This document shows positions 1-9,822 of a stretch of 64,000 nucleotides of DNA, one piece after another. Numbering within the stretch: the stretch's first letter is position 1; every line of letters starts with the position of its first letter. Both the position numbers and the translations under genes were made by a program. Origin of the DNA: a virus (taxonomy: Duplodnaviria; Caudoviricetes); IMG/VR virus record IMGVR_UViG_3300025601_000007; one strand, 5' to 3'. The notes below the pieces were generated by a model that was not told the origin of the DNA, ran no database searches, and saw nothing but the letters and a program-made list of their open reading frames with translations.

Positions 1-149
1 TGAATGCTAATAGTGTATTGAGTTTTTTCATTGTTGCTTTGCTTTGTTATACCCTCAATGAGTTCAAAGGGAGAGTTGGGATGAAAAATAAACAGCGGAA
101 GTGCCATCTTCCTCCACGTCGGGCTGTGGCGGTTTTAATTTGTAACTGA

Positions 150-224
150 TTATTTCATTCCGTTCCGAAAGAACCAACCGAATTTGCGGTTGAACCATTC
201 TTCTATCCTCTTTAATGTTTTCAT
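150..224 (-). CDS. 24-aa microprotein MKTLKRIEEWFNRKFGWFFRNGMK
   Basis: ATG exactly 7 nt after motif 232-258; below the ORF-track cutoff. Confidence 0.65.
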   Translation of the reverse strand: MKTLKRIEEWFNRKFGWFFRNGMK

Positions 225-264
225 GATTTCAATGAGTGCGCTAGGGTGAATAGGATGAGATTTC

Positions 265-558
265 TCAAATCCCATTCAGCTTCCTAGCTAGTTTTATTTC
301 TTGTGGTGTCAGTCCCGCTCTTTGCAAGCTCGACAACCATCTGGTTTTCATTTGTGAGGGAGAGATTTCTCCATCGCAAGCGTAGTTCTCTGGAGCCTCT
401 GATGGCTCCATAATCACATACACTTGATTCTCTGTTAGCTTGGGTCTAAATCCCATCGCTACCAATTCATCCATTTGCTCTTGTTGGTGTGCTTTGTCGT
501 AAGCCTTCCAATCAATCTTGCCCGTGATAGGGTCTTTAAAGTCGTTCGTATCTGCCAT
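265..558 (-). CDS. hypothetical early protein
   Basis: ATG 7 nt after motif 566-592. Confidence 0.8.
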   Translation of the reverse strand: MADTNDFKDPITGKIDWKAYDKAHQQEQMDELVAMGFRPKLTENQVYVIMEPSEAPENYACDGEISPSQMKTRWLSSLQRAGLTPQEIKLARKLNGI

Positions 559-593
559 GCCCCTTATGAGTCACAAGGGAGAGTTAGGATGAA

Positions 594-914
594 TTAACTA
601 CCAAGCATTTTACGTACTGCATCCCATGATGCAATGTATTTATCTGTGTTCTGCTTTTGAACCACGTTGAGGTTGTAACCCAAGTTTTCCATCTCTGCTT
701 TCAAATCGGAATACTCCGCTTCTGTTGCTGGTCTTGAGTCAGCAATGCAGCCAACGTAATTTGCTGAACTATGTTGCCCTACGTGCTGGTAACTTGTAAC
801 GTGTCCGTTGCGGTCATCGACTTCGTGCGGCAGCATGGCAAATACTACATCTTTGAAATCTCCTGATTTGTCTGCTCTGAATACTACGTCTGTTACTGGG
901 TTATCTTGTTCCAT
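594..914 (-). CDS. conserved phage hypothetical protein (TSYQHVGQH...EY..L..E...GY pattern)
   Basis: ATG 7 nt after motif 922-948. Confidence 0.8.
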   Translation of the reverse strand: MEQDNPVTDVVFRADKSGDFKDVVFAMLPHEVDDRNGHVTSYQHVGQHSSANYVGCIADSRPATEAEYSDLKAEMENLGYNLNVVQKQNTDKYIASWDAVRKMLGS

Positions 915-951
915 GCTTCTTATGAGTTCAAAGGGAGAGTTAGGATGAAAT

Positions 952-1407
952 TTAATTACACAAAGTTCTATACTTTCCGTCTACAACTTCAACTGCTGTG
1001 TGCAGTGGATTCCCTCGCATGGACAAAAGCTCTTCATCTGGCAATGTAAATGTGATTGCGTGATACAAATGATTCGCTTCTTTTGCTTCAAACTCGAATC
1101 TCTTTTCATCGAATCCTCCCATTGCCCCAAATGGATGAAAGTTCATTTCAACTTTCTTGTCTAATCCATCACCAATCTGAACGGGCATTGTATCGTCTGA
1201 CATATATACTCCATTGATTCCGAATACAAAGTCTCCATTGAGGAAAAAGCATAAGTTGACTGCGTGGTTGTCGCATTCTCCTTCTATTCGGTCAAACTCG
1301 AAGAGGTTTTGAAGAATCCCCATCTTGAGAAAGAATTCTTGAACCGCTTCGAATCCTTGCTCGAAGTCTAGTTGTAATGCGTTGAGAAATATACCGTCTT
1401 GTTTCAT
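952..1407 (-). CDS. hypothetical early protein (start corrected to MKQDG)
   Basis: The track ORF starts at 1476 but runs through motif 1415-1441; ATG at 1407 is 7 nt after the motif. Confidence 0.8.
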   Translation of the reverse strand: MKQDGIFLNALQLDFEQGFEAVQEFFLKMGILQNLFEFDRIEGECDNHAVNLCFFLNGDFVFGINGVYMSDDTMPVQIGDGLDKKVEMNFHPFGAMGGFDEKRFEFEAKEANHLYHAITFTLPDEELLSMRGNPLHTAVEVVDGKYRTLCN

Positions 1408-1442
1408 GCTCTTTATGAGTTCGTTTTGTTTACTGGGATGAA

Positions 1443-1694
1443 TTAATCCATAACATTTTCTTCCATCCATTCCCAATCCACAATATCCACAAGCGACTGA
1501 ACCGAATTCATTAGAAACGAATTACCAAATGGCAAGTTGATTACGATTGCATCTCCTGCGGGCTTAACCGATTCAATGATTATTTGTCTTTGGTTGATTG
1601 GTGCATCGTCAGTCAACGTCAAGAGGTTTCCCGCTTTTTGTACGTGTGCTAACTTGCTTCCGAATCTTACTGATGTGTCTGTTGCTGCTTCCAT
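1443..1694 (-). CDS. hypothetical early protein
   Basis: ATG 7 nt after motif 1702-1728. Confidence 0.8.
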   Translation of the reverse strand: MEAATDTSVRFGSKLAHVQKAGNLLTLTDDAPINQRQIIIESVKPAGDAIVINLPFGNSFLMNSVQSLVDIVDWEWMEENVMD

Positions 1695-1735
1695 GCCCTT
1701 TATGAGTTGGTTATCTTCTTTGGGATGAAAAAACT

Positions 1736-1963
1736 TTAATCATTATTCAACCATTCATAATAAATCTCGTCATAACCCACACTTAATAGGTTTGCTAGTT
1801 TAGTGAAAACTCTTTCTCTTACAAGTGAATCACTCACACCCAAACAATCGTAAACGTTTGGTAGATTCTCTTTCAAATCTTCAAAGGTTACTGTTGGGTT
1901 GATTTCCGCACCCAATTCATCTGTTGGGAATTCTTCTTGATACCATTCTTTTATTTCCGCCAT
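1736..1963 (-). CDS. acidic hypothetical early protein (start corrected to MAEIKEW)
   Basis: ATG at 1963 is 7 nt after motif 1971-1997. Confidence 0.8.
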   Translation of the reverse strand: MAEIKEWYQEEFPTDELGAEINPTVTFEDLKENLPNVYDCLGVSDSLVRERVFTKLANLLSVGYDEIYYEWLNND

Positions 1964-2074
1964 GCCTTCTATGAGTTCAAAGGGAGAGTTGGGATGAATT
2001 ACAACGGTGGAATTTTGTCTTTTATTTGTTGTTCGGTTTCTCATCCCAACCCGCCAATTGCACTCATACCTTAT

Positions 2075-2150
2075 GGAAAACCATGCCAACGAGGGAGAGG
2101 TAGCCAAAAAGGAACGAGCCATTTCTAGCCCGTTCCTTGCACTATTTTTT
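2075..2150 (+). ncRNA. putative short RNA starting GGAAAACC and ending at a hairpin
   Basis: Motif 2041-2067 points here; predicted +1 is G2075, not an ATG; hairpin AAGGAACG..CGTTCCTT then a T-run. Confidence 0.4.
2109..2150. terminator. stem-loop between convergent units
   Basis: aaggaacg(2109-2116)/cgttcctt(2131-2138) flanked by A- and T-runs. Confidence 0.6.
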
Positions 2151-2161
2151 GTTAGGGAAGC

Positions 2162-2824
2162 TTACCCCTCGATGATGTAGCTTTCGCCACCTAATCGCGC
2201 TCCAATAATGTTCTCGATTTGAACGGTGCGAAACATAAACTCTAACTTTTGAAACTCTTCAAGGTTTGCTATGGCGTTTGCTTTCGTTCGTAATTCGTTA
2301 GCAAGTTCGGTGTTTCCTTCGTTTTCGGCTATTGCCGATTGCTTTAATGCGTGGTTGAACATGGAATTTTGTGCGGCTTTTTTGTCGTTTTGCGTCAATC
2401 CAGAATTGGTTATGTAGTCAGCGTTCCAAACATCTTTACGTTCAACGGGCTGACCGTTGCTAAACAATTGCGTTTGCGGCTTGCTGTGTGCCTCGGATAC
2501 AAAGCAAAGGTATTGAATATCAGGATTTTTATCTTTGTGGACAATGCAACGATTTTTGTCGTTTGCGTCATACGAACGCCCCGTCATTTTATTTGGTGTC
2601 CAATCGAAATTTAACCCCTTCTCAGTTAAGATACGGTCGATTTTAGCTTGATAAATGCTATTAAGCGTTGCTACGGTATTTACCGTTTTTTGAAGTGCTT
2701 TCTTCTTGTTAATAGTTCGTGACTTGCTTTCGTCTACGTGATATGTTAAGCCCGAAAAAGTTGCGCCTTTTTGCGATTTCATCATTTCGATGAATTGTGC
2801 TTTAGTGATTTTTTTTGCTTCCAT
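2162..2824 (-). CDS. conserved jumbo-phage hypothetical protein, copy 1
   Basis: 220 aa, identical to 3544..4206; ATG 7 nt after motif. Confidence 0.9.
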   Translation of the reverse strand: MEAKKITKAQFIEMMKSQKGATFSGLTYHVDESKSRTINKKKALQKTVNTVATLNSIYQAKIDRILTEKGLNFDWTPNKMTGRSYDANDKNRCIVHKDKNPDIQYLCFVSEAHSKPQTQLFSNGQPVERKDVWNADYITNSGLTQNDKKAAQNSMFNHALKQSAIAENEGNTELANELRTKANAIANLEEFQKLEFMFRTVQIENIIGARLGGESYIIEG

Positions 2825-2901
2825 GCTTATTATGAGTTGACTTGTTTTGTTAGGACGAAAAAACTTTGGTTTAATTGAAGAAACTTATGGTTTCTTTATA
2901 A

Positions 2902-2929
2902 TATACGTGAAAACGCCCGTTTGGTTTCA
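2902..2929 (-). promoter_or_regulatory. ECF-type promoter TGAAAC-N16-CGTATA
   Basis: Exact spacing; duplicated at 4284-4311. Confidence 0.65.
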
Positions 2930-2935
2930 TGCTTA

Positions 2936-3145
2936 TTATGAGTTGACTTTCGTGACACTCTTATATCCTGAGTGGTATGAATCACCCCATAAAGACGTTC
3001 CCATAAATCCGCCATACGATATAAACGTTTTGCTTACAGTCCGCATCGCTCCATTGTGGATAACTGTGTCACCAAATCGAATGGTATCAATGTGAACTTG
3101 CTCCGTTCCGAATTTCTCAATCATTTGTTGCTCGTCTGTCGTCAT
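2936..3145 (-). CDS. hypothetical early protein; stop codon lies inside an ACTCATAA half-site
   Basis: ATG 7 nt after motif 3153-3179. Confidence 0.75.
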   Translation of the reverse strand: MTTDEQQMIEKFGTEQVHIDTIRFGDTVIHNGAMRTVSKTFISYGGFMGTSLWGDSYHSGYKSVTKVNS

Positions 3146-3180
3146 ACCATCTATGAGTCAGGGAGAGCTAGTAGGATGAA

Positions 3181-3345
3181 TTATCTGACTGGATTATTTG
3201 CCCTCCAATCTTTGACGGCATATTTGATAGAACACATAAGGTATTTGTGACCCTCTATGTTGATAGTGCCGTTGGAATATTTGTAAGCAAATATCCCGTT
3301 TCTTATTTTCGTCTTGGAAAGTGGTGTAGAGAATAAATCAATCAT
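3181..3345 (-). CDS. 54-aa protein MIDLFSTPLSKTKIRNG...
   Basis: Lies between two identical motifs (3153, 3353); ATG 7 nt after motif; not in track. Confidence 0.75.
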   Translation of the reverse strand: MIDLFSTPLSKTKIRNGIFAYKYSNGTINIEGHKYLMCSIKYAVKDWRANNPVR

Positions 3346-3456
3346 ACCATCTATGAGTCAGGGAGAGCTAGTAGGATGAATTACATCAATGGAAATTTGT
3401 CTTTTATTTGTTGTTCGGTTTCTCATCCCAACCCGCCAATTGCACTCATACCTTAT

Positions 3457-3532
3457 GGAAAACCATGCCAACGAGGGAGAGGTAGCCAAAAAGGAACGAG
3501 CCATTTCTAGCCCGTTCCTTGCACTATTTTTT
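3457..3532 (+). ncRNA. second copy of putative GGAAAACC short RNA
   Basis: Duplicate of 2075-2150. Confidence 0.4.
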
Positions 3533-3543
3533 GTTAGGGAAGC

Positions 3544-4206
3544 TTACCCCTCGATGATGTAGCTTTCGCCACCTAATCGCGCTCCAATAATGTTCTCGAT
3601 TTGAACGGTGCGAAACATAAACTCTAACTTTTGAAACTCTTCAAGGTTTGCTATGGCGTTTGCTTTCGTTCGTAATTCGTTAGCAAGTTCGGTGTTTCCT
3701 TCGTTTTCGGCTATTGCCGATTGCTTTAATGCGTGGTTGAACATGGAATTTTGTGCGGCTTTTTTGTCGTTTTGCGTCAATCCAGAATTGGTTATGTAGT
3801 CAGCGTTCCAAACATCTTTACGTTCAACGGGCTGACCGTTGCTAAACAATTGCGTTTGCGGCTTGCTGTGTGCCTCGGATACAAAGCAAAGGTATTGAAT
3901 ATCAGGATTTTTATCTTTGTGGACAATGCAACGATTTTTGTCGTTTGCGTCATACGAACGCCCCGTCATTTTATTTGGTGTCCAATCGAAATTTAACCCC
4001 TTCTCAGTTAAGATACGGTCGATTTTAGCTTGATAAATGCTATTAAGCGTTGCTACGGTATTTACCGTTTTTTGAAGTGCTTTCTTCTTGTTAATAGTTC
4101 GTGACTTGCTTTCGTCTACGTGATATGTTAAGCCCGAAAAAGTTGCGCCTTTTTGCGATTTCATCATTTCGATGAATTGTGCTTTAGTGATTTTTTTTGC
4201 TTCCAT
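3544..4206 (-). CDS. conserved jumbo-phage hypothetical protein, copy 2
   Basis: Identical protein to 2162..2824. Confidence 0.9.
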   Translation of the reverse strand: MEAKKITKAQFIEMMKSQKGATFSGLTYHVDESKSRTINKKKALQKTVNTVATLNSIYQAKIDRILTEKGLNFDWTPNKMTGRSYDANDKNRCIVHKDKNPDIQYLCFVSEAHSKPQTQLFSNGQPVERKDVWNADYITNSGLTQNDKKAAQNSMFNHALKQSAIAENEGNTELANELRTKANAIANLEEFQKLEFMFRTVQIENIIGARLGGESYIIEG

Positions 4207-4477
4207 GCCTTCTATGAGTTGACTTGTTTTGTTAGGACGAAAAAACTTTGGTTTAATTGAAGAAACTTATGGTTTCTTTATAATATACGTGAAAACGCCC
4301 GTTTGGTTTCATGCTTATTATGAGTTAACTTTCGATAGTAGGATGAAAAAAAAGAAACAAATAAACAAGCCAAGTAAAGCGGTTTTCCACAAGGAATGAG
4401 TCGAATCCCCGAACCAGGATGAGAAACAAAGAATTTTCTTTTTTCATCCCAGACTTAATTCCGAACTCATTAAAAGC

Positions 4478-4771
4478 ATGGACATGAACAAAGCAATAGA
4501 AGAGTATGTATCTAAAGGGTTTAAACTTACATACCAAGACAAACAAAGGTATGCTAGTCTATACAAAAATGTAGACGTAGAGAATGTAAAAGTAGAAGGC
4601 TCAGATAGAGTTATTAGCGGTGAAACTATGGAAATTACCCAAGAAAAGATAACACAACATAATTCTTATAAATGCGGCTGGCTATGGGCAAGCAGCGCAG
4701 AAATAGTTTCAAGAAAAGGAAATGTGTATTTAAGTGGAAAGTCAGAAATAGTAAAAACGTTTTCGTCCTAA
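4478..4771 (+). CDS. hypothetical early protein
   Basis: ATG 7 nt after motif 4444-4470. Confidence 0.8.
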   Translation: MDMNKAIEEYVSKGFKLTYQDKQRYASLYKNVDVENVKVEGSDRVISGETMEITQEKITQHNSYKCGWLWASSAEIVSRKGNVYLSGKSEIVKTFSS

Positions 4772-4796
4772 TCCACAAAACCAACTCATAGAGGTT

Positions 4797-5141
4797 ATGG
4801 CATTTAACAGTGAACACTACAGAAAAGTATTTAGCGCACGCTCAGGAAATCGTGACGAATTATACTGCTTCGCCCTACGCAGAAAAATGGGCAAAAATGG
4901 AAGAGTAGAAGAGCATCCTTTGTATGGTCAGAAATTCAAAAAAAAGAACAGTAACAAAATTTATACGGTAAATTCAGTAAACATCCATTTTTGGGACGGT
5001 GGTTATTATTGGTTTGTTGTTTTTGAAGATGAAAAAGGAAGTTCAGCCCCACGACATTGGGAAAATATAAATTCAACATCTAAGTTAACGCTTGAATGTA
5101 TAAAAGAAACACAGGAAGATTTTACACTTTTTACATCCTAA
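4797..5141 (+). CDS. hypothetical early protein
   Basis: ATG 7 nt after motif 4763-4789. Confidence 0.8.
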   Translation: MAFNSEHYRKVFSARSGNRDELYCFALRRKMGKNGRVEEHPLYGQKFKKKNSNKIYTVNSVNIHFWDGGYYWFVVFEDEKGSSAPRHWENINSTSKLTLECIKETQEDFTLFTS

Positions 5142-5183
5142 AGGATTGACTTGACTCATGAAAAGAGAACAAAGCAACGCAAC

Positions 5184-5336
5184 ATGGAATACAACTACAG
5201 AAGTAAGAACGTAGGCAAAGATTTAATCTTTGCCACAAGATTAAGGCTCGCAGAAAAAAAAGGATTACAACTTAAAAAAGTTGGTGTTAAAATGTATAGC
5301 TATCTTATGAATGCAGAGTTAGGCATTATCCTTTAA
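5184..5336 (+). CDS. small basic protein (start corrected to MEYNYRS)
   Basis: Follows motif 5133-5159 and a short A/C-rich leader. Confidence 0.7.
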   Translation: MEYNYRSKNVGKDLIFATRLRLAEKKGLQLKKVGVKMYSYLMNAELGIIL

Positions 5337-5379
5337 TAGTATTTTTCATCCCAACCCACCAAGCCAACTCATAAAAAGT

Positions 5380-5607
5380 ATGAATAAAGGACGATTTATT
5401 ACCGCAAAGTTCACAAGCAAGTGTGCTGAATTAAACACTCAAGTCAAAAAAGGAACAGAAGTTTTTTATGACGCATCTGAACGAAAAGTATATAGTGCAA
5501 ATTCAGCACGTTTCAAAAGCGAAAGTGAATCAAAGTCTTTGGGAAATTTTATTCAAGCCCAAGATGATGCTTTTTATGACAACTTTTGTCAAAACAATAA
5601 CATTTAA
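5380..5607 (+). CDS. hypothetical early protein
   Basis: ATG 7 nt after motif 5346-5372. Confidence 0.8.
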   Translation: MNKGRFITAKFTSKCAELNTQVKKGTEVFYDASERKVYSANSARFKSESESKSLGNFIQAQDDAFYDNFCQNNNI

Positions 5608-5629
5608 AAAAAAGGGTCATTCCCTTTTT
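5606..5629. terminator. bidirectional hairpin AAAAAAAAGGG-TCATT-CCCTTTTT
   Basis: Short stem with A/T tails between convergent units. Confidence 0.55.
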
Positions 5630-5760
5630 GCTTTGACTCTTTTTGCAAAACACATTTCCATAACGTATGAGTCGAATTTCCGAACCAAGATGAGAAATAA
5701 AGGTTTTTTCTTTTTTCATCCCATAAGTCTCTATTGACTCATAAGGTAAAACGAAGCAAC

Positions 5761-6153
5761 ATGACACAAACAAATCACGAAATTATCAGCGCAAGACTTC
5801 AAGCCTTGCGCCCAGAAGGTAAGTATCAAAAACAGTCGCTCGAAGCAATGAAAAAAATGTACTTCGTTGACGATGCAAACCAAATAGCTTCTACTGAAAA
5901 AAGTTTGCTTTTAGGGTACGATTTTCAGAGCGAAATGCTACGTGGGGAAAAGCGACTGAAACGAGTTGAGAACATTGAAAGCGCAGTAGTAAAATTAGAG
6001 CGTCACGCCTATGCACCCGAAATGAATTGCCTACACTTCAAAAACGGTAAAACGCTTCAAGCAGAAGGGTTTACTGAGCTTAAAACCGCAATAAAGTTTG
6101 CGGCTATTTCACTTTCAGAGGAACAAATTAATGATTATATCGGTGCTGAATAA
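5761..6153 (+). CDS. hypothetical early protein (start corrected to MTQTNHE)
   Basis: Follows motif 5716-5742 with an 11-nt leader. Confidence 0.8.
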   Translation: MTQTNHEIISARLQALRPEGKYQKQSLEAMKKMYFVDDANQIASTEKSLLLGYDFQSEMLRGEKRLKRVENIESAVVKLERHAYAPEMNCLHFKNGKTLQAEGFTELKTAIKFAAISLSEEQINDYIGAE

Positions 6154-6201
6154 AGCATTGATATTTTTCATCCTGAAACGAAAACTCAACTCATAAGAAG
6201 C

Positions 6202-6669
6202 ATGGAAGCAACAAACGGAAATATCTTAGCAATTAAAATTAGCAACATCCTTAAAAACAATCTTCCTAAATCAGTTTGGAAGGAGGTTGCAGAGCGAACA
6301 AATATGTTCAAAGAGCCTTACATTAGAATAATGTTTGCCGCCAATGACCATGCAATAAATGGTGTAAGAGGGCAATTTCCTCAATGCGTGTCTTTATTGT
6401 TAAGTGTAAACAGTTTAGAACTGCAAACACAAGTGTACGGGGGAAATGGTGGTGGAGTTATCTACAGAAAACCAAACATGGAAGACCGAAAAGAAAAGTA
6501 TTTGGCAATGAAAAACGTAAAAATACCATTTAGAAAACCATTAAAAACAGAAGAAGCGGTACTTAAGGCGATTCAACGCTTTTGCCAAAAATGGGTCGAA
6601 ACACTCAAAGAACACAGAAACGTTTTGAAGTACACAGATATTGTTGACTATGACAAATTGTTGTCGTAG
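6202..6669 (+). CDS. hypothetical early protein (MEATNGN start)
   Basis: ATG 7 nt after motif 6168-6194. Confidence 0.85.
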   Translation: MEATNGNILAIKISNILKNNLPKSVWKEVAERTNMFKEPYIRIMFAANDHAINGVRGQFPQCVSLLLSVNSLELQTQVYGGNGGGVIYRKPNMEDRKEKYLAMKNVKIPFRKPLKTEEAVLKAIQRFCQKWVETLKEHRNVLKYTDIVDYDKLLS

Positions 6670-6707
6670 TTTTTCATCCCAACCCACCAAGCCAACTCAT
6701 AATAGTC

Positions 6708-7103
6708 ATGGAAGCAACAAACGGAAACATGATAGAGAAAATCAAAGGGAACATAATGGGAACAAAAAGCATTATTGCTAAATTCCCAAAAATGCGCAAG
6801 TCGCAGAGTTTTATTGTTTACCCCATTGCCAAAGATGGCAATGCCAAATTGATTAAAATTCAATCTGACACCCGAATGGGGCAAATTGATACCGAAACGG
6901 GAAAAGTGACTATTACAAAACCTTATCCTAATGGTGCATATTTTCACCACTTGCAAGGAGAAACACAGTCTTTCATTCTTTCAGGTGTAGACCTTCAAAG
7001 CTTGCGAATGGAAATATTCGCTTCTTCAAACTCAGAAGCTGGGAAAAAAGAAAATGGCGTAATTCAAACCGACAATTCAGGAGCAATAAATATCTTAGGG
7101 TAA
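6708..7103 (+). CDS. hypothetical early protein (MEATNGN start)
   Basis: ATG 7 nt after motif 6674-6700. Confidence 0.85.
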   Translation: MEATNGNMIEKIKGNIMGTKSIIAKFPKMRKSQSFIVYPIAKDGNAKLIKIQSDTRMGQIDTETGKVTITKPYPNGAYFHHLQGETQSFILSGVDLQSLRMEIFASSNSEAGKKENGVIQTDNSGAINILG

Positions 7104-7154
7104 ATCCATCCTATTCCACCAATGGAACTCATAAAGGGTAACAAACACAAAGAC

Positions 7155-7370
7155 ATGAAAATCACCAACACCAACACAACTCCAAACTTAGTCGCATTTT
7201 TAATAACAATAGCAGGCGGTGTAGGCTTTATCTACCAATTAGGTAGGCTATGCAAGCCTGAAAATGAAGCTTTTGGATTAGATGTGTGCATATTCGTGTT
7301 TTTTCTATCAATGTTCTTTACGGGGGTCAAAGCGTTGCTTGCTTGTACAACTGGTAAATTTTCAAACTAG
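7155..7370 (+). CDS. small 2-TM membrane protein (start MKITNTN)
   Basis: Two hydrophobic segments; follows motif 7106-7132. Confidence 0.75.
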   Translation: MKITNTNTTPNLVAFLITIAGGVGFIYQLGRLCKPENEAFGLDVCIFVFFLSMFFTGVKALLACTTGKFSN

Positions 7371-7416
7371 CAAAGAAATTTTTCATCCCAACCCACCAAG
7401 CCAACTCATAAAGGTT

Positions 7417-7572
7417 ATGAAGAAAGGAAATGTAGTATATTTAGATGGTGTGGTCAAATGCACTATCGAACACACAAATGGAATACTTTACGTTGTGACA
7501 AACGGAGAGCAAACACTTAGCGTATTCGCTTCAAGAATAAAAACCGAAAAACACCTAATTTGTTTTGATTGA
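7417..7572 (+). CDS. 51-aa protein (start corrected to MKKGNVV)
   Basis: ATG 7 nt after motif 7383-7409. Confidence 0.75.
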   Translation: MKKGNVVYLDGVVKCTIEHTNGILYVVTNGEQTLSVFASRIKTEKHLICFD

Positions 7573-7611
7573 TTTTTTCATCCCAATCTATTAAGTTAAC
7601 TCATAATAAGC

Positions 7612-7830
7612 ATGAAACAACTACTAATTATTTTCGTAGCAATCCTAATGGCTTGCTCGTTCGCCTCTTGCTCGTCACAACGAAGCAAAACAAAAGGCTT
7701 TAACTATCAGTCACACTCGAAAAGTAACGCTAAATCTTCGCGTTCAAACGCCAAAAAGTTCAAAGCAGCAGGCGGAGATTACACGAAGATGAAGTGTAAA
7801 AGACGTAAAAGTAAAAACCGTCGTAGATAA
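7612..7830 (+). CDS. predicted basic lipoprotein
   Basis: Signal peptide MKQLLIIFVAILMACSFAS-C lipobox; Lys/Arg-rich mature part. Confidence 0.75.
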   Translation: MKQLLIIFVAILMACSFASCSSQRSKTKGFNYQSHSKSNAKSSRSNAKKFKAAGGDYTKMKCKRRKSKNRRR

Positions 7831-7894
7831 TATTGTTTTTTCATCCCAGACCCGCAAACCAACTCATAAAATAAGAACAGCAAAACAATACGAT

Positions 7895-8089
7895 ATGGAT
7901 TTTTCAGGTTTCTATGACGCACTAACAAAAGCAGTATACCGCTCTACAACAGTACCATTCTCAGCTTTCAATAAAACAGATGCAAAGCAAATTTTGCAAA
8001 AGAATTTTGAAAGCATCCTTGATATGCACGAACAAAAAGTAACCATCTTAAAAGCTTTGAAAAGACTGGAGGATTTGCCTACCCATTAA
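7895..8089 (+). CDS. hypothetical early protein
   Basis: Follows motif 7841-7867. Confidence 0.75.
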   Translation: MDFSGFYDALTKAVYRSTTVPFSAFNKTDAKQILQKNFESILDMHEQKVTILKALKRLEDLPTH

Positions 8090-8099
8090 TTCGCTCAAA

Positions 8100-8520
8100 T
8101 CATAAAGCGGGAGAGCCACAATCGAAGTTAGCCACAATAGACTAATCAAGCCCCTATTTAGACCTTTAGAGAGACTATCTCCTAAATAAGACCCTAGGAG
8201 TCTATATAGGGGTTAAGGGCTTAAATAGGGGCTTAAATAGGCGTATCATTAATAAGGGGCTAAACAAGGGGTTGCCCAAAAACCCGCCCCGACCACTCTA
8301 AAATTTTTTACTATAATTTTTCAAAGTAAATCACACCCCCTAAAACAAATCATTCCCAGTAAGTGAGCCCTCAAAAACCTTTTAAATGTTTTTAAAACCT
8401 TTTAGATGTTTTTAGATGTTTTTAGATGTACATAAATTATATGCATTCGCGTATCGTTGGCATCAAAAATTTTTTTTAAGAATTTTTCAAAAATCAAATC
8501 AGCTACTTTAGAGTTATATT
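8100..8520. repeat. non-coding repeat-rich region (possible origin, att region or genome junction)
   Basis: 13-bp inverted repeat aagcccctattta 8148-8160 / taaataggggctt 8222-8234; gggcttaaatagg x2; agccacaat x2; TTTAGATGTT x3 at 8401-8430. Confidence 0.6.
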
Positions 8521-8550
8521 GTATCTTTGAGTTATAAATTTAAAAACACT

Positions 8551-9822
8551 ATGGCTTCTTTAAACCCATTAACCCAGATAAACTTAAAAAACCTTCCAGG
8601 GAATCCTAAAAAAGCGATTCAAATCTCTTTGAATGCAGGATTTAAAGAGGTCGATGTGGACACAGACGAGGTCAAACACAGGAGTATCAGGCTGTTAACG
8701 GGGAAGCAGATTCTCCCTCAGCACTGGGACAAGAAGGGCAAGTGTCCATCCTTAGAGTATTGTAAAGAGTTTGGGAACGAATTAAGTGATTTCATAAAGG
8801 AGTTAGAAACACAAATGGTTAATGCTTATTGGCAAGTTAAGTCTGAGCACTACAAAACCACACCTGAACTAGTCGTGAGTAGATACAGGAGGCTTATAGG
8901 GGATGACAAAAGCGGAAAACCATTAAATGGGATGGTGTTGTTCATTCAAAAGCACATTGAGACGTCAGATTTGGCCGATACGACGAAAGCGGGTTATGTA
9001 GTAGTTTTTAATAGATTAAAAGAGTTTGAAAAAACCAGAGAGAAGAAATTATACTGGGAAAAATACACATATGATGTATTTTGCGATTTTTTTGACTGGC
9101 TCGCGAATAATTTCAATTTATCCAACAACACCTTATGGAGTCATGAAAAAGCGATGATTCGTTTTAGGAACGTAGCAGACTCTAAGGGGTTATTGGTTGA
9201 TAAATCAAAGTGGAGTCGTTTAATTCGTTATCAGCAGGAGAAGAAGGAGTATTTGAGTTGGAAACAGCTAAAAGTGTTAATTGATTACCAGCCTAAGACG
9301 AAGAGATTAAAGAACGCGAAGAGCGCATTATTGATTATGGCTTTCACAGGTATTAGAATTGGCGACCTTGACAATTTTTTCAACAACATCAAGAAAGGCG
9401 ATAATTATCGATACGCCAATTTCAAGACAAACAAATTACCGCACAACGAAGTTTACATTCCGATACTGGCTCCTATTGTGGAAATTATAGATTCACCAAT
9501 AAGAGTAACAAGGAATGCTGCTTTGACTGGCAGTATAAAAGATTTAGGAAAAGAGTTGGGGTATGATAATATATCAGCTCACACTGGAAGGAGGAGTTTT
9601 ATAACAAACTTAGTTCCTCTGGTACAGGAAAACATATTGAGAAAAATATGTGGTTTTTCGTGTTCTTCTTCTATTCACATTTATGACCAGCTACCTCTGG
9701 ATAGAGTCGCAGATATGTTCCATAAACATATTCAAGCAGCGCCTTTAACAAAAACTGAAGGTATTAAATTAATTGAAAAAGAAAAATGGTACAAAAGGAT
9801 TTTAAAAAAATTCATTCCTTGA
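8551..9822 (+). CDS. tyrosine recombinase / integrase (Bacteroidetes arm-binding + SAM-like + catalytic type)
   Basis: FTGIRIGDL (R), SAHTGRRSF (HxxR), HIYDQ (Y); N-terminal TG..I....WD arm-domain pattern; TATCTTTG host -7 box at 8522. Confidence 0.88.
   Translation: MASLNPLTQINLKNLPGNPKKAIQISLNAGFKEVDVDTDEVKHRSIRLLTGKQILPQHWDKKGKCPSLEYCKEFGNELSDFIKELETQMVNAYWQVKSEHYKTTPELVVSRYRRLIGDDKSGKPLNGMVLFIQKHIETSDLADTTKAGYVVVFNRLKEFEKTREKKLYWEKYTYDVFCDFFDWLANNFNLSNNTLWSHEKAMIRFRNVADSKGLLVDKSKWSRLIRYQQEKKEYLSWKQLKVLIDYQPKTKRLKNAKSALLIMAFTGIRIGDLDNFFNNIKKGDNYRYANFKTNKLPHNEVYIPILAPIVEIIDSPIRVTRNAALTGSIKDLGKELGYDNISAHTGRRSFITNLVPLVQENILRKICGFSCSSSIHIYDQLPLDRVADMFHKHIQAAPLTKTEGIKLIEKEKWYKRILKKFIP

Follow-up and report, generated by a model that had tools for sequence, protein, structure and literature searches.

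Which signal precedes the small genes at the start of this phage DNA, and what reads it? The stretch that was analysed (64 kb, hereafter the window) belongs to an uncultivated jumbo phage and carries a dense block of ORFans behind copies of a 27-bp element, TCATCC-N15-ACTCAT (hereafter E). From its sequence, E most probably represents a promoter type that is new and specific to the phage, with the two-box architecture of sigma-dependent promoters. The overall explanation that we favor, and regard as likely, is that E serves as promoter for a transcription class of the phage's own, combined with a transcription cascade and cassette shuffling.

A divergent array that continues beyond the window

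The window contains 21 exact copies of E and six copies with one mismatch (TCGTCC at 2832, 4214 and 4763; ACATCC at 5133; TCATCT at 5667; CCATCC at 7106), which reproduces the 27 full copies counted in an earlier, sequence-only reading. These copies span positions 58-7867, with a chance expectation of 0 (no match in 100 dinucleotide shuffles), and two-mismatch matches elsewhere in the window are scattered and noise-like. By strand, 14 copies are minus and 13 plus, mostly co-oriented with a downstream ORF; copies 2041 (+), 3423 (+) and 5667 (-) oppose their own arm. The divergent layout described earlier was recovered, with genes running leftward from 4422 and rightward from 4444, and the centre consists of 21 bp between two back-to-back E copies, with no other promoter there. 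The intergenic gap frequently equals the motif plus 8 nt, the stop codon of the preceding gene lying 1 nt upstream. The claim of one element per gene holds for about 22 units; it fails for the copies of a GGAAAAC subclass, which front no sizeable ORF, and for copy 4320, which stands in tandem with copy 4214 and a box of a second, ECF-type class (M, TGAAAC-N16-CGTATA), all before one gene. The features are listed below; E and M promoters are putative.

Left arm and centre
1-8089: window part of the E-promoter gene array; left arm minus, from 4422 to 1 and beyond; right arm plus, 4444-8089
58-84, minus: E promoter; 26-nt A/C-rich stretch, then ATG; gene (134 aa in haplotype L112) leaves the window start
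232-258, minus: E promoter; ATG at position 8 after ACTCAT; small ORF of 24 aa (150-224) or 44 aa (64-198)
566-592, minus: E promoter; 97-aa gene 265-558, predicted leaderless
922-948, minus: E promoter; 106-aa gene 594-914, predicted leaderless
1415-1441, minus: E promoter; 151-aa gene 952-1407, predicted leaderless
1702-1728, minus: E promoter; 83-aa gene 1443-1694, predicted leaderless
1971-1997, minus: E promoter; 75-aa gene 1736-1963, predicted leaderless; haplotype junction at 2001, 4 nt upstream of the promoter
2041-2067, plus: GGAAAAC-subclass E copy, counter-oriented; GGAAAAC begins at the position-8 purine; possible 35-aa ORF 2073-2180
2832-2858, minus: E promoter, TCGTCC variant; 220-aa gene 2162-2824, predicted leaderless; duplicated gene, copy 1
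2902-2929, minus: ECF-type M promoter (TGAAAC-N16-CGTATA); tandem, upstream of the 220-aa gene
2938-2964, minus: half E element; ACTCAT and downstream part present, with the 3' end of the 69-aa gene in place of the -35 box
3153-3179, minus: E promoter; 69-aa gene 2936-3145 (PHROG 3623, function unknown), predicted leaderless
3353-3379, minus: E promoter; 54-aa gene 3181-3345, predicted leaderless; 42 nt identical to the 3153 copy
3423-3449, plus: GGAAAAC-subclass E copy, counter-oriented; duplicate of 2041
4214-4240, minus: E promoter, TCGTCC variant; 220-aa gene 3544-4206, predicted leaderless; copy 2
4284-4311, minus: ECF-type M promoter between two E promoters
4320-4346, minus: E promoter, tandem; position-8 ATG shares bases with the M-promoter box TGAAAC and opens a 19-aa ORF only
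4396-4422, minus: GGAAAAC-subclass E copy; divergent centre, same orientation as the left arm

Right arm
4444-4470, plus: first right-arm E promoter; 97-aa gene 4478-4771, predicted leaderless
4763-4789, plus: E promoter, TCGTCC variant; 114-aa gene 4797-5141, predicted leaderless
5133-5159, plus: E promoter, ACATCC variant; ATG 24 nt after ACTCAT; 50-aa gene 5184-5336
5346-5372, plus: E promoter; 75-aa gene 5380-5607, predicted leaderless
5667-5693, minus: GGAAA-subclass E copy, TCATCT variant, counter-oriented; back to back with the 5716 copy
5716-5742, plus: E promoter; ATG 18 nt after ACTCAT; 130-aa gene 5761-6153
6168-6194, plus: E promoter; 155-aa gene 6202-6669, predicted leaderless
6674-6700, plus: E promoter; 131-aa gene 6708-7103, predicted leaderless
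7106-7132, plus: E promoter, CCATCC variant; ATG 22 nt after ACTCAT; 71-aa gene 7155-7370
7383-7409, plus: E promoter; 51-aa gene 7417-7572, predicted leaderless
7578-7604, plus: E promoter; 72-aa gene 7612-7830, predicted leaderless
7841-7867, plus: last right-arm E promoter; ATG 27 nt after ACTCAT; 64-aa gene 7895-8089

The array does not begin at position 58, as had been supposed, since overlapping contigs of the same phage (99-100% identical) take it approximately 45 kb beyond the window start. The window is one tip of the E regulon: it takes in all of the right arm (3.6 kb) but, of the left arm (approximately 49 kb), only the first 4.4 kb. The whole E block covers approximately 53 kb with at least 107 copies; statistics on 107 copies refer to a 56-kb composite of this phage. 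All 20 public runs holding the sequence are DNA. The only hint of a role in host takeover is the ORFan content of the array. The host is probably a member of the Bacteroidota, judging from integrase type, sigma homologues and leader style.

Predicted start site and putative reader of E

The extended consensus reads T-W-W-T, TCATCC, Y, A, 12 variable nt, R, ACTCAT, A, 5 variable nt and a Y-R step. Spacer length is rigid: among exact copies in the composite it is 15 nt in 79 and 16 nt in one, with no copies at 10-14 or 17-21 nt. Position 7 after ACTCAT is a pyrimidine in 96 of the 107 copies and position 8 a purine in 102, and an ATG starts exactly at position 8 in 60 (18 of the 27 window copies). 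When unique copies are considered, 46 of 103 have the ATG exactly 7 nt after ACTCAT; in the remainder the distance is 17-55 nt and never 8-16 nt. The 57 unique copies without a position-8 ATG retain C/T at position 7 (44 copies) and A/G at position 8 (52 copies), followed by an A-rich stretch, and gene-fronting copies of this kind mostly have a predicted leader of 10-28 nt that is A/C-rich and unstructured. The Y-R step and the bimodal ATG distance would together fit a fixed start site yielding leaderless or short-leader mRNAs, and over half of the array genes appear to be made without an mRNA leader. These sequence statistics agree with the start 8 nt downstream of ACTCAT that had been predicted earlier.

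The same ATG distance, fixed in over half of the copies, could also be read as a sign that E acts in RNA, either as a site where long transcripts are processed or as a module for initiating translation within them. E copies are G-poor and unstructured like Bacteroidota translation start regions, and terminators between array genes are few, so that read-through RNA would include the motif. This explanation is nevertheless very improbable: the divergent centre and three other back-to-back pairs leave no space for another promoter, the Y-R step persists in the 57 copies without an ATG at the fixed distance, and counter-oriented copies front no gene. Moreover, no RNA structure was found at E copies (mean MFE -4.35 kcal/mol versus -8.11 in control segments; z approximately 0 versus shuffles), nor any Rfam match for the element.

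As a promoter, E stands apart from known classes. It was said not to be the Bacteroidota promoter, and it is indeed unlike the sigma-A consensus (TTTG/TAnnTTTG); no enrichment of sigma-70-like or TAnnTTTG matches was found, and the TCATCC and ACTCAT boxes are not known to match any promoter class. A collection of 185,579 species genomes yielded single matches and no E regulon, and 301 Bacteroidia genomes showed no excess (at most three matches per genome, similar to a reversed-pattern control). The motif is conserved in six related phage contigs, the boxes being invariant and the spacer variable at an orthologous site; phage contigs with a 60-77% identical sigma carry it. The absence of a sigma-A match and of a regulon in the cellular genomes searched, together with this conservation, supports a distinct promoter class.

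Such a profile, unlike any host promoter and absent from cellular genomes, would also suit a virion-delivered non-sigma phage RNA polymerase (RNAP) of the N4, phiKZ/AR9 or crAss-like type, reading E independently of the host. N4 virion RNAP (vRNAP) promoters are hairpins. In phiKZ/AR9-type jumbo phages, injected RNAPs serve early genes (PMC5312081, PMC8244752), and the AR9 vRNAP promoter is a single contiguous AT-rich block, AAATATATATTAT-N6-G (PMC5312081). Against this, known vRNAP promoters are contiguous blocks of this kind or hairpins rather than two boxes with a free spacer, there is no hairpin at E, and the window and approximately 56 kb of array, Pfam annotations included, revealed no RNAP-like gene and no second sigma gene. 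We consider a virion RNAP quite unlikely.

Under the favored promoter reading, E would be recognized by an RNA polymerase whose core is of bacterial type and which carries a sigma-like specificity factor other than the host primary sigma. This factor would take TCATCC as a -35-like and ACTCAT as a -10-like element, and transcription would start at the purine 8 nt after ACTCAT; where this purine is the A of the start codon, the mRNA would have no leader. The long (left) E arm encodes an ECF sigma. The M class, with ten copies in the window, has the classical make-up of an ECF-type promoter such as those of B. subtilis SigW. M sits directly after the sigma gene, before later-function genes, and further into the window precedes nucleotide and NAD metabolism genes. 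The phage ECF sigma probably reads M, and since it is encoded in the E arm, E would act before M.

An alternative assignment has the phage ECF sigma reading E instead of M, its gene being auto-regulated and kick-started, for example, by virion-packaged sigma, with M left to a host ECF sigma or other factor. ECF sigma genes are usually auto-regulated, this one lies within the E arm without an M box upstream, and an E-type motif occurs approximately 225-250 nt upstream of the sigma gene, inside the preceding ORF (L043/L105, L108 and L106). However, the relative L103 has no such internal motif (at most one mismatch), ACTCAT as a -10 element lacks the CGT core usual in ECF promoters, and the SigW-type character and placement of M argue for the opposite pairing. 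This assignment is therefore unlikely. For the preferred two-class cascade, one point against it is that the first E transcript is unexplained if the host holoenzyme cannot read E.

Spacers, duplication and cassette junctions

Verbatim spacer repeats had been reported and are present: CAACCCACCAAGCCA at 5346, 6674 and 7383, CAACTCTCCCTTTGA at 58 and 1971, and TACTAGCTCTCCCTG at 3153 and 3353. Their interpretation as products of copying or recombination is supported in part. A segmental duplication (1966-2952 equals 3348-4334, offset 1382 bp, about 98% identical) accounts for the identical spacers of 2041/3423 and 2832/4214. One of its ends lies at a -35 box and the other within an E spacer, and its junction is the half E element at 2938-2964, at the microhomology CGAAAGT. 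The premise of a free N15, in turn, does not hold throughout. About a third of E spacers share a CTCTCCC core at shifting registers, which a plain two-box model does not explain, and the GGAAAAC subclass (2041+, 3423+, 5667- and 4396-) has a conserved spacer; the spacer TGGTTCGGGGATTCG of copy 4396 and the bases predicted to be transcribed first are retained in paralogues and in L103. Spacer identity thus partly reflects constraint or shared origin, not recent copying alone.

Three strain haplotypes co-occur, namely W, L113 (also L048 and L051) and L112 (also L055). They are 98-100% identical in shared genes and differ by whole cassettes between W1708 and W3334; the 83-aa gene (1443-1694) has another spacer and discriminator in L112. 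Every haplotype junction lies inside a motif or at most 4 nt from one. In different copies and strains, the upstream flank of the 3353 copy is followed by one or another of three units of spacer plus gene, and L106 carries a 4.3-kb insertion between E-promoter direct repeats of approximately 45 nt. Gene gain, loss and duplication junctions in near-identical strains thus fall at E copies, in line with the PeSL-like (promoter-early stem-loop) role proposed earlier, and gene content of relatives does not vary independently of motif positions. These junctions suggest that E repeats also serve as crossover points for gene swapping: the 27-45-bp promoter units, as sole intergenic DNA, would provide the homology for cassette duplication, loss and replacement. 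Because intergenic DNA consists of the motif only, any viable rearrangement must break at a motif, and where a junction falls cannot by itself show that recombination is driven by E. One duplication junction, moreover, used microhomology in the spacer rather than the conserved boxes.

Next to the array lies a tyrosine recombinase gene (8551-9822), and cassettes vary between strains, which raises the question of whether E copies are sites of this recombinase in an integron-like cassette platform. The motif has no dyad symmetry, and most of the 53 kb that it spans is remote from the recombinase; in related contigs with the motif, the called genes include no integrase. Junctions vary in place, in or beside the motif and including the spacer microhomology, with no single cleavage point. 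Each cassette, furthermore, has its own expression signal, and orientation is divergent. A role as recombinase sites is thus highly improbable.

Comparison with known systems

A close analogue of E as promoter and crossover repeat is the PeSL of the T4-type phages RB49/phi1, where a hyperplastic region contains ORFans, each directly preceded by one of dozens of near-identical early-promoter units (Arbiol et al. 2010, PMC2839356; Comeau et al. 2014, PMC4122927). In both systems, closely related genomes have ORFan cassettes inserted, deleted or replaced, with junctions in promoter units; some E crossovers lie downstream of the -10 box but ahead of the ATG, the arrangement seen in PeSL mini-circles, and one insertion here is flanked by promoter direct repeats. 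Unlike PeSL, E has no sigma-70-like or host-type consensus, stem-loop terminator or Shine-Dalgarno site, its units measure 27-45 bp instead of about 100 bp and are mostly predicted to yield leaderless mRNAs, and at least 107 copies form one contiguous 53-kb block, whereas PeSL occur in several regions.

With the early vRNAP promoters of phiKZ/AR9 (PMC8244752, PMC5312081), E shares a phage-specific class unrelated to that of the host, tens of copies in a jumbo phage and a start, here predicted, at a constant distance (6-7 nt) downstream of the conserved element. Multisubunit phage RNAPs read the phiKZ/AR9 promoters, each of them one uninterrupted AT-rich block, whereas E has two GC-containing boxes with a rigid 15-nt spacer and no RNAP gene was found in the window and array. 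No leaderless phiKZ transcript was detected (PMC8244752), while predicted leaderless starts dominate in the E array. Some genes here have tandem promoters of two classes, like the continuously expressed genes of AR9.

In architecture, E resembles promoters of group 3/4 alternative sigmas, with two short boxes, fixed spacing and a start few nt after the second box. Phage sigma cascades are exemplified by SPO1, in which gp28 is followed by gp33/34; likewise, the sigma gene here belongs to the class that would act earlier, and M, the probable target of its product, precedes later genes. Among the differences from the alternative-sigma, SPO1 and SigW systems is the probable Bacteroidota-type host, with a primary sigma that reads TTTG/TAnnTTTG.

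Copies, spacing and extent of the E element

The 27 copies of the element TCATCC-N15-ACTCAT (E, 27 bp) claimed in a sequence-only reading were recovered as 21 exact copies in the 64-kb window and six with one mismatch in the twelve fixed bases, and the verbatim spacer recurrences listed there are all exact. The exact matches all fall within 58-7867, and none was obtained in 100 shuffles of the window. Conservation reaches flanking positions outside the search pattern: the extended consensus has T-W-W-T before TCATCC and Y-A after it, R before ACTCAT and A after it, and includes a pyrimidine-purine step at positions 7/8 after ACTCAT, position n being the nth nucleotide downstream of this second box.

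The array had been delimited to 58-8089. The copies in this interval are real, but the array does not end at the window, as its left arm continues for ~45 kb past the window start. Array proteins were looked up in public assemblies and overlapping metagenome contigs (L112, L114, L117, L119 and L105) were then walked, which are 99-100% identical in the overlaps to the window or to each other. The resulting composite path of 56,169 nt holds 107 E copies, 79 of them exact, from position 734 to 53,696 with a median spacing of 421 nt. The spacer is N15 in the 79 exact copies and N16 in one extra site, and no site with N10-14 or N17-21 was detected in the composite. Contigs L039, L043, L053, L066, L069 and L105, considered as distant relatives with unrelated genes, turned out by contig walking to be other parts of the same phage.

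The two gene arms of the window diverge, one heading left from 4422 and the other right from 4444, and the motif is often the entire intergenic DNA, with a stop codon 1 nt before it and the following ATG 8 nt beyond it. Eighteen of the 27 window copies have an ATG starting at position 8 after ACTCAT; in five others (58, 5133, 5716, 7106 and 7841) an A/C-rich stretch intervenes and the ATG is 18-27 nt from ACTCAT. Pfam gave a single, marginal hit (E 0.009) and no credible domain for the 22 array proteins; PHROG families of unknown function are matched strongly by one of them (PHROG 3623) and weakly by two.

Several local peculiarities were noted. A CTCTCCC(T) core occurs in 33 of the 107 spacers of the composite array (e.g. 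window 58, 566, 922, 1971, 3153 and 3353) in a register that shifts by 1-3 nt, also at orthologous promoters of relatives; it is not explained by a plain two-box model and may represent either the site of a regulator or a trace of shared ancestry. At L114 15407-15456, tandem 23-nt repeats (ACTCATCC) place the ACTCAT of one unit over the TCATCC of the next, so both boxes have a common TCAT core, 23 nt apart. In one assembly of the phage (L119 17343-17861), an HTH gene is preceded by an inserted TnpB/Cas12f-like fragment of 172 aa on the opposite strand, which another assembly (L105 about 6200-6340) lacks. Two ORF-free blocks are dense in short direct repeats. One (8090-8520) borders the array beside the integrase; the other, of similar make-up (L114 17380-17585), is part of the long arm and immediately precedes an E copy with no ORF behind it. 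An antisense mini-ORF was also considered, the reverse complement ATGAGT-N15-GGATGA being in frame, but 15 stops among 255 spacer codons represent no depletion.

Probable promoter architecture and predicted start site

E is not the Bacteroidota TTTG/TAnnTTTG promoter, as had been stated: its boxes match neither this class nor TTGACA/TATAAT, and the motif has no TAnnTTTG at -7 and no TTTG near -33. TAnnTTTG (67 found vs 77 expected) is not enriched in the window, nor are sigma-70-like matches enriched (17 found vs 22.7 expected). Canonical TAnnTTTG examples do occur elsewhere, namely before the integrase at 8522 and at L114 17720. In the 56-kb arm, the latter (L114 17720-18021, TTTG-N18-TATCTTTG) is the one host-type promoter of canonical Bacteroidota form that was found; it precedes two tiny ORFs of 34 and 45 aa, the second of which looks by eye like a ribbon-helix-helix DNA-binding protein.

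Among the known virion-RNAP promoters, some are hairpins. The N4-type promoter hairpin with a 5-7-bp stem was not found in E, whose boxes are not inverted repeats. Others are contiguous AT-rich blocks (PMC5312081, PMC8244752), and E differs from the phiKZ/AR9 type in being bipartite and containing GC. Nor does the array resemble an integron, whose promoterless cassettes are flanked by attC-type imperfect inverted repeats and adjoin an IntI integrase: the motif is without dyad symmetry, every cassette comes with an expression signal of its own, and the two arms point away from each other. Two boxes with a spacing fixed within 1 nt are found, as in promoters of alternative sigma factors. Together with a start 7 nt after the second box, this rigid architecture would correspond to a promoter of the sigma-70-family type, in which starts fall 5-9 nt after the -10 box, typically at a purine preceded by a pyrimidine. 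The box sequences appear to match no promoter class.

The position of the start codons predicts where transcription begins. Of 103 unique copies, pooled from the phage and its relatives, 46 have an ATG exactly 7 nt after ACTCAT, and nearly all other gene-fronting copies have it at 17-55 nt, with none at 8-16 nt. This bimodal distribution is the one predicted for a fixed start at position 8, where the AUG is either the 5' end itself or follows a ribosome-loading leader. In the 57 unique copies without a position-8 ATG, a pyrimidine at 7 (44 copies) and a purine at 8 (52 copies) are followed by an A-rich stretch, so the step is not a by-product of the start codon; across the composite, position 7 is Y in 96 of 107 copies and position 8 is R in 102 of 107. 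At the divergent centre and in three other back-to-back pairs, outward-facing copies are 21-43 bp apart, which leaves no space for other promoters. The mean minimum free energy of the motif region is -4.35 kcal/mol vs -8.11 kcal/mol in control segments of the same DNA, with a folding z of about 0. We infer that E is a promoter with a fixed start site; the start and the timing are predictions from sequence. With this start, ~56% of the array would be leaderless. Twenty salt-lake metagenome runs, each from a different study, contain the phage DNA, and none of them is RNA.

One subclass, marked GGAAAAC, has a common spacer and downstream sequence. Its copies are:
2041-2067 (+), E copy in the window
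3423-3449 (+), E copy in the window
4396-4422 (-), E copy in the window
5667-5693 (-), E copy in the window
L114 18844, further copy
L105 15014, further copy
L103 15719, further copy

The four window copies are followed by YCCTTRTGGAAAAC and by no sizeable ORF. The conserved spacer TGGTTCGGGGRTTCG and the conserved predicted first transcribed bases GGAAAACCGC are kept in a relative, and the copies are placed at block boundaries or point against genes. The subclass may drive a small RNA; it has no Rfam match, nor has window 1-9000.

Cassette junctions at the elements

Three haplotypes co-occur, namely that of the window and two others, with shared flanks that are 98-100% identical. The replacements and their junctions are:
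2002-2945, replaced in haplotype L113 (also L048 and L051) by 776 nt with two other genes
1709-3333, replaced in haplotype L112 (also L055) by 244 nt
2001, junction 4 nt upstream of a -35 box
at the -35 box, junction joining one upstream flank to three different spacer-plus-gene units
-10/discriminator region, junction at which an 83-aa gene has two different promoters
about 2946-2953, duplication junction inside a spacer, with 7-nt microhomology

In addition, identical 33-42-nt promoter units stand ahead of unrelated genes in the window, and relative L106 carries a 4.3-kb block of small repeat-protein genes between ~45-nt direct repeats of the E promoter. This block (L106 5713-9984) consists of ~17 head-to-tail overlapping ORFs of ~90 aa with faint MORN-repeat hits, between two E copies. 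The proposal that gene content changes at the motifs is supported by the junctions of the three haplotypes and by the L106 insertion flanked by promoter repeats. The junctions match the model of PeSL, the promoter-early stem-loop cassettes of T4-type phages, down to some crossovers that fall between the -10 box and the ATG. As no intergenic DNA other than the motif exists here, selection to keep genes intact would be enough to leave surviving junctions at it. PeSL units also exchange with one another to release mini-circles. For E, assembled contigs of DNA runs were examined, and loose ends of their contig graph at 58, 84, 88 and 1971 were considered as variants and rejected: they match other identical promoter copies in the same genome (L114 17556-17640 and 15155), and are therefore branches of the assembly graph rather than evidence of rearrangement.

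The M class, possible readers of E and known systems

A second class, TGAAAC-N16-CGTATA (M), has 10 copies in the window vs 0.24 expected, between 2902 and 37017 and all on the minus strand. Every related contig also has it, and many M copies stand next to E in tandem. The features of this system are:
2902 and 4284 (-), M copies inside the array that form tandems with E copies upstream of a 220-aa gene present twice
11.8-37 kb (-), eight further M copies preceding nucleotide, NAD and RNA-repair genes
L043 6770-7393, intact ECF sigma gene in the left arm (Pfam Sigma70_r2, Sigma70_r4_2, Sigma70_ECF)

A conserved M-plus-E tandem lies directly 3' of the ECF sigma gene, the single sigma gene in ~110 kb examined; no second sigma or RNAP gene was found by Pfam in the window or in the ORFs scanned in the 56-kb arm. 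The duplicated 220-aa gene was considered as a hidden sigma and discarded, with no similarity to the ECF sigma of this phage and no informative atlas hit. In L105 (10001-10622) the ECF sigma is split into ORFs of 153 and 41 aa vs an intact 207 aa in L043, at 98% identity, a difference due either to a frameshift variant or to an error of assembly.

By its boxes, M appears to be an ECF/SigW-like class, and we take it to be a textbook ECF-type promoter. The simplest cascade is then one in which the E-driven genes would include the ECF sigma, which would in turn read M, and M is the more likely target of this sigma. That the ECF sigma itself reads E and auto-regulates is a minority alternative. 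The factor that reads E may be encoded by the host or by another part of the phage genome, or may arrive with the virion. We consider it rather unlikely that this factor enters with the phage DNA, as a packaged sigma-like protein (possibly the ECF sigma) or an unrecognised polymerase, such that ~20% of a Bacteroidota jumbo-phage genome would bypass the host primary sigma and leader-dependent translation initiation, with the repeats as a cassette-exchange platform. If true, such a bypass system would express over 100 single-gene units, most of them leaderless.

E appears to be specific to one phage lineage in the collections searched. A 17-base version of the E motif gave only single hits across 185,579 prokaryotic species (one genome each), and the 12-base pattern gave ≤ 3 hits per genome in 301 Bacteroidia genomes, about equal to a reversed-pattern control; this tally includes the unpublished genome G185 (single hit), on which the result does not depend. 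A motif scan of IMG/VR returned only single chance hits, a 765-aa protein had no relative in IMG/VR, and megablast and tblastn against 50,697 phage records gave nothing close. The nearest records, megaphages LR745206 and LR756502 (635-642 kb), encode an ECF sigma homologue with 32-33% identity; they show no E excess, with a single exact match in their combined 1.28 Mb (LR745206 has none), and lack M. Unrelated multi-hit metagenome loci (L026, L040 and L045) are CRISPR arrays whose repeat, GGTTCATCCCCRC...GGGGAACTC, happens to fit the pattern. True relatives (L103/L104, L106/L107 and L108-L111) come from other samples, have a sigma that is 60-77% identical and show E and M copies in equivalent positions. 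Six sequences compared at the orthologous site 3' of the sigma gene agree completely in the two E boxes and differ at more than half of the spacer positions.

Three features point to a Bacteroidota host. The tyrosine recombinase gene bordering the array has a canonical TAnnTTTG box, and its product, itself a weak Phage_integrase match, has relatives with Bacteroidota-type integrase domains (arm and SAM). The nearest cellular homologues of the phage sigma are Bacteroidota ECF sigmas (~40-43% identity), and the leaders are A-rich and without Shine-Dalgarno sites. To our knowledge, transcription in Bacteroidota phages, and in uncultivated jumbo phages generally, is largely unmapped. A defined promoter class with a predicted start, in at least 107 copies in one phage and kept in relatives from several sampling sites, is directly usable to annotate early genes and to hunt for its cognate factor; in Bacteroidota it can also serve as an orthogonal part for expression.

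Bacteroidota mRNAs rarely have short leaders. In B. thetaiotaomicron, ~3.7% of mRNAs have a short leader (PMC7366714), whereas the leaderless share predicted here would, if confirmed, be an unusual translation strategy for the phylum. Distinctive of E are its new consensus, its scale (at least 107 units over ~53 kb) and this predicted leaderless predominance in a Bacteroidota-type system. As in PeSL, E units lie upstream of ORFans in a hyperplastic region that is cassette-variable between close relatives, and the crossovers between -10 box and ATG described for PeSL (PMC2839356) are likewise seen at E junctions. PeSL, however, use a strong host sigma-70-like early promoter, a type that is not enriched here, and carry a terminating stem-loop, whereas none is tied to the E motifs (12 terminator-like sites vs 7 expected) and the motif region is less structured than controls. 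In function, E would resemble the early-promoter regulon of a phage joined to an exchange platform of the PeSL kind, in which two features that define PeSL, the host-type promoter and the stem-loop, are missing. The three haplotypes provide a natural, non-T4 example of promoter-bounded cassette exchange, which carries the PeSL concept over to an unrelated phage lineage whose promoters differ in chemistry.
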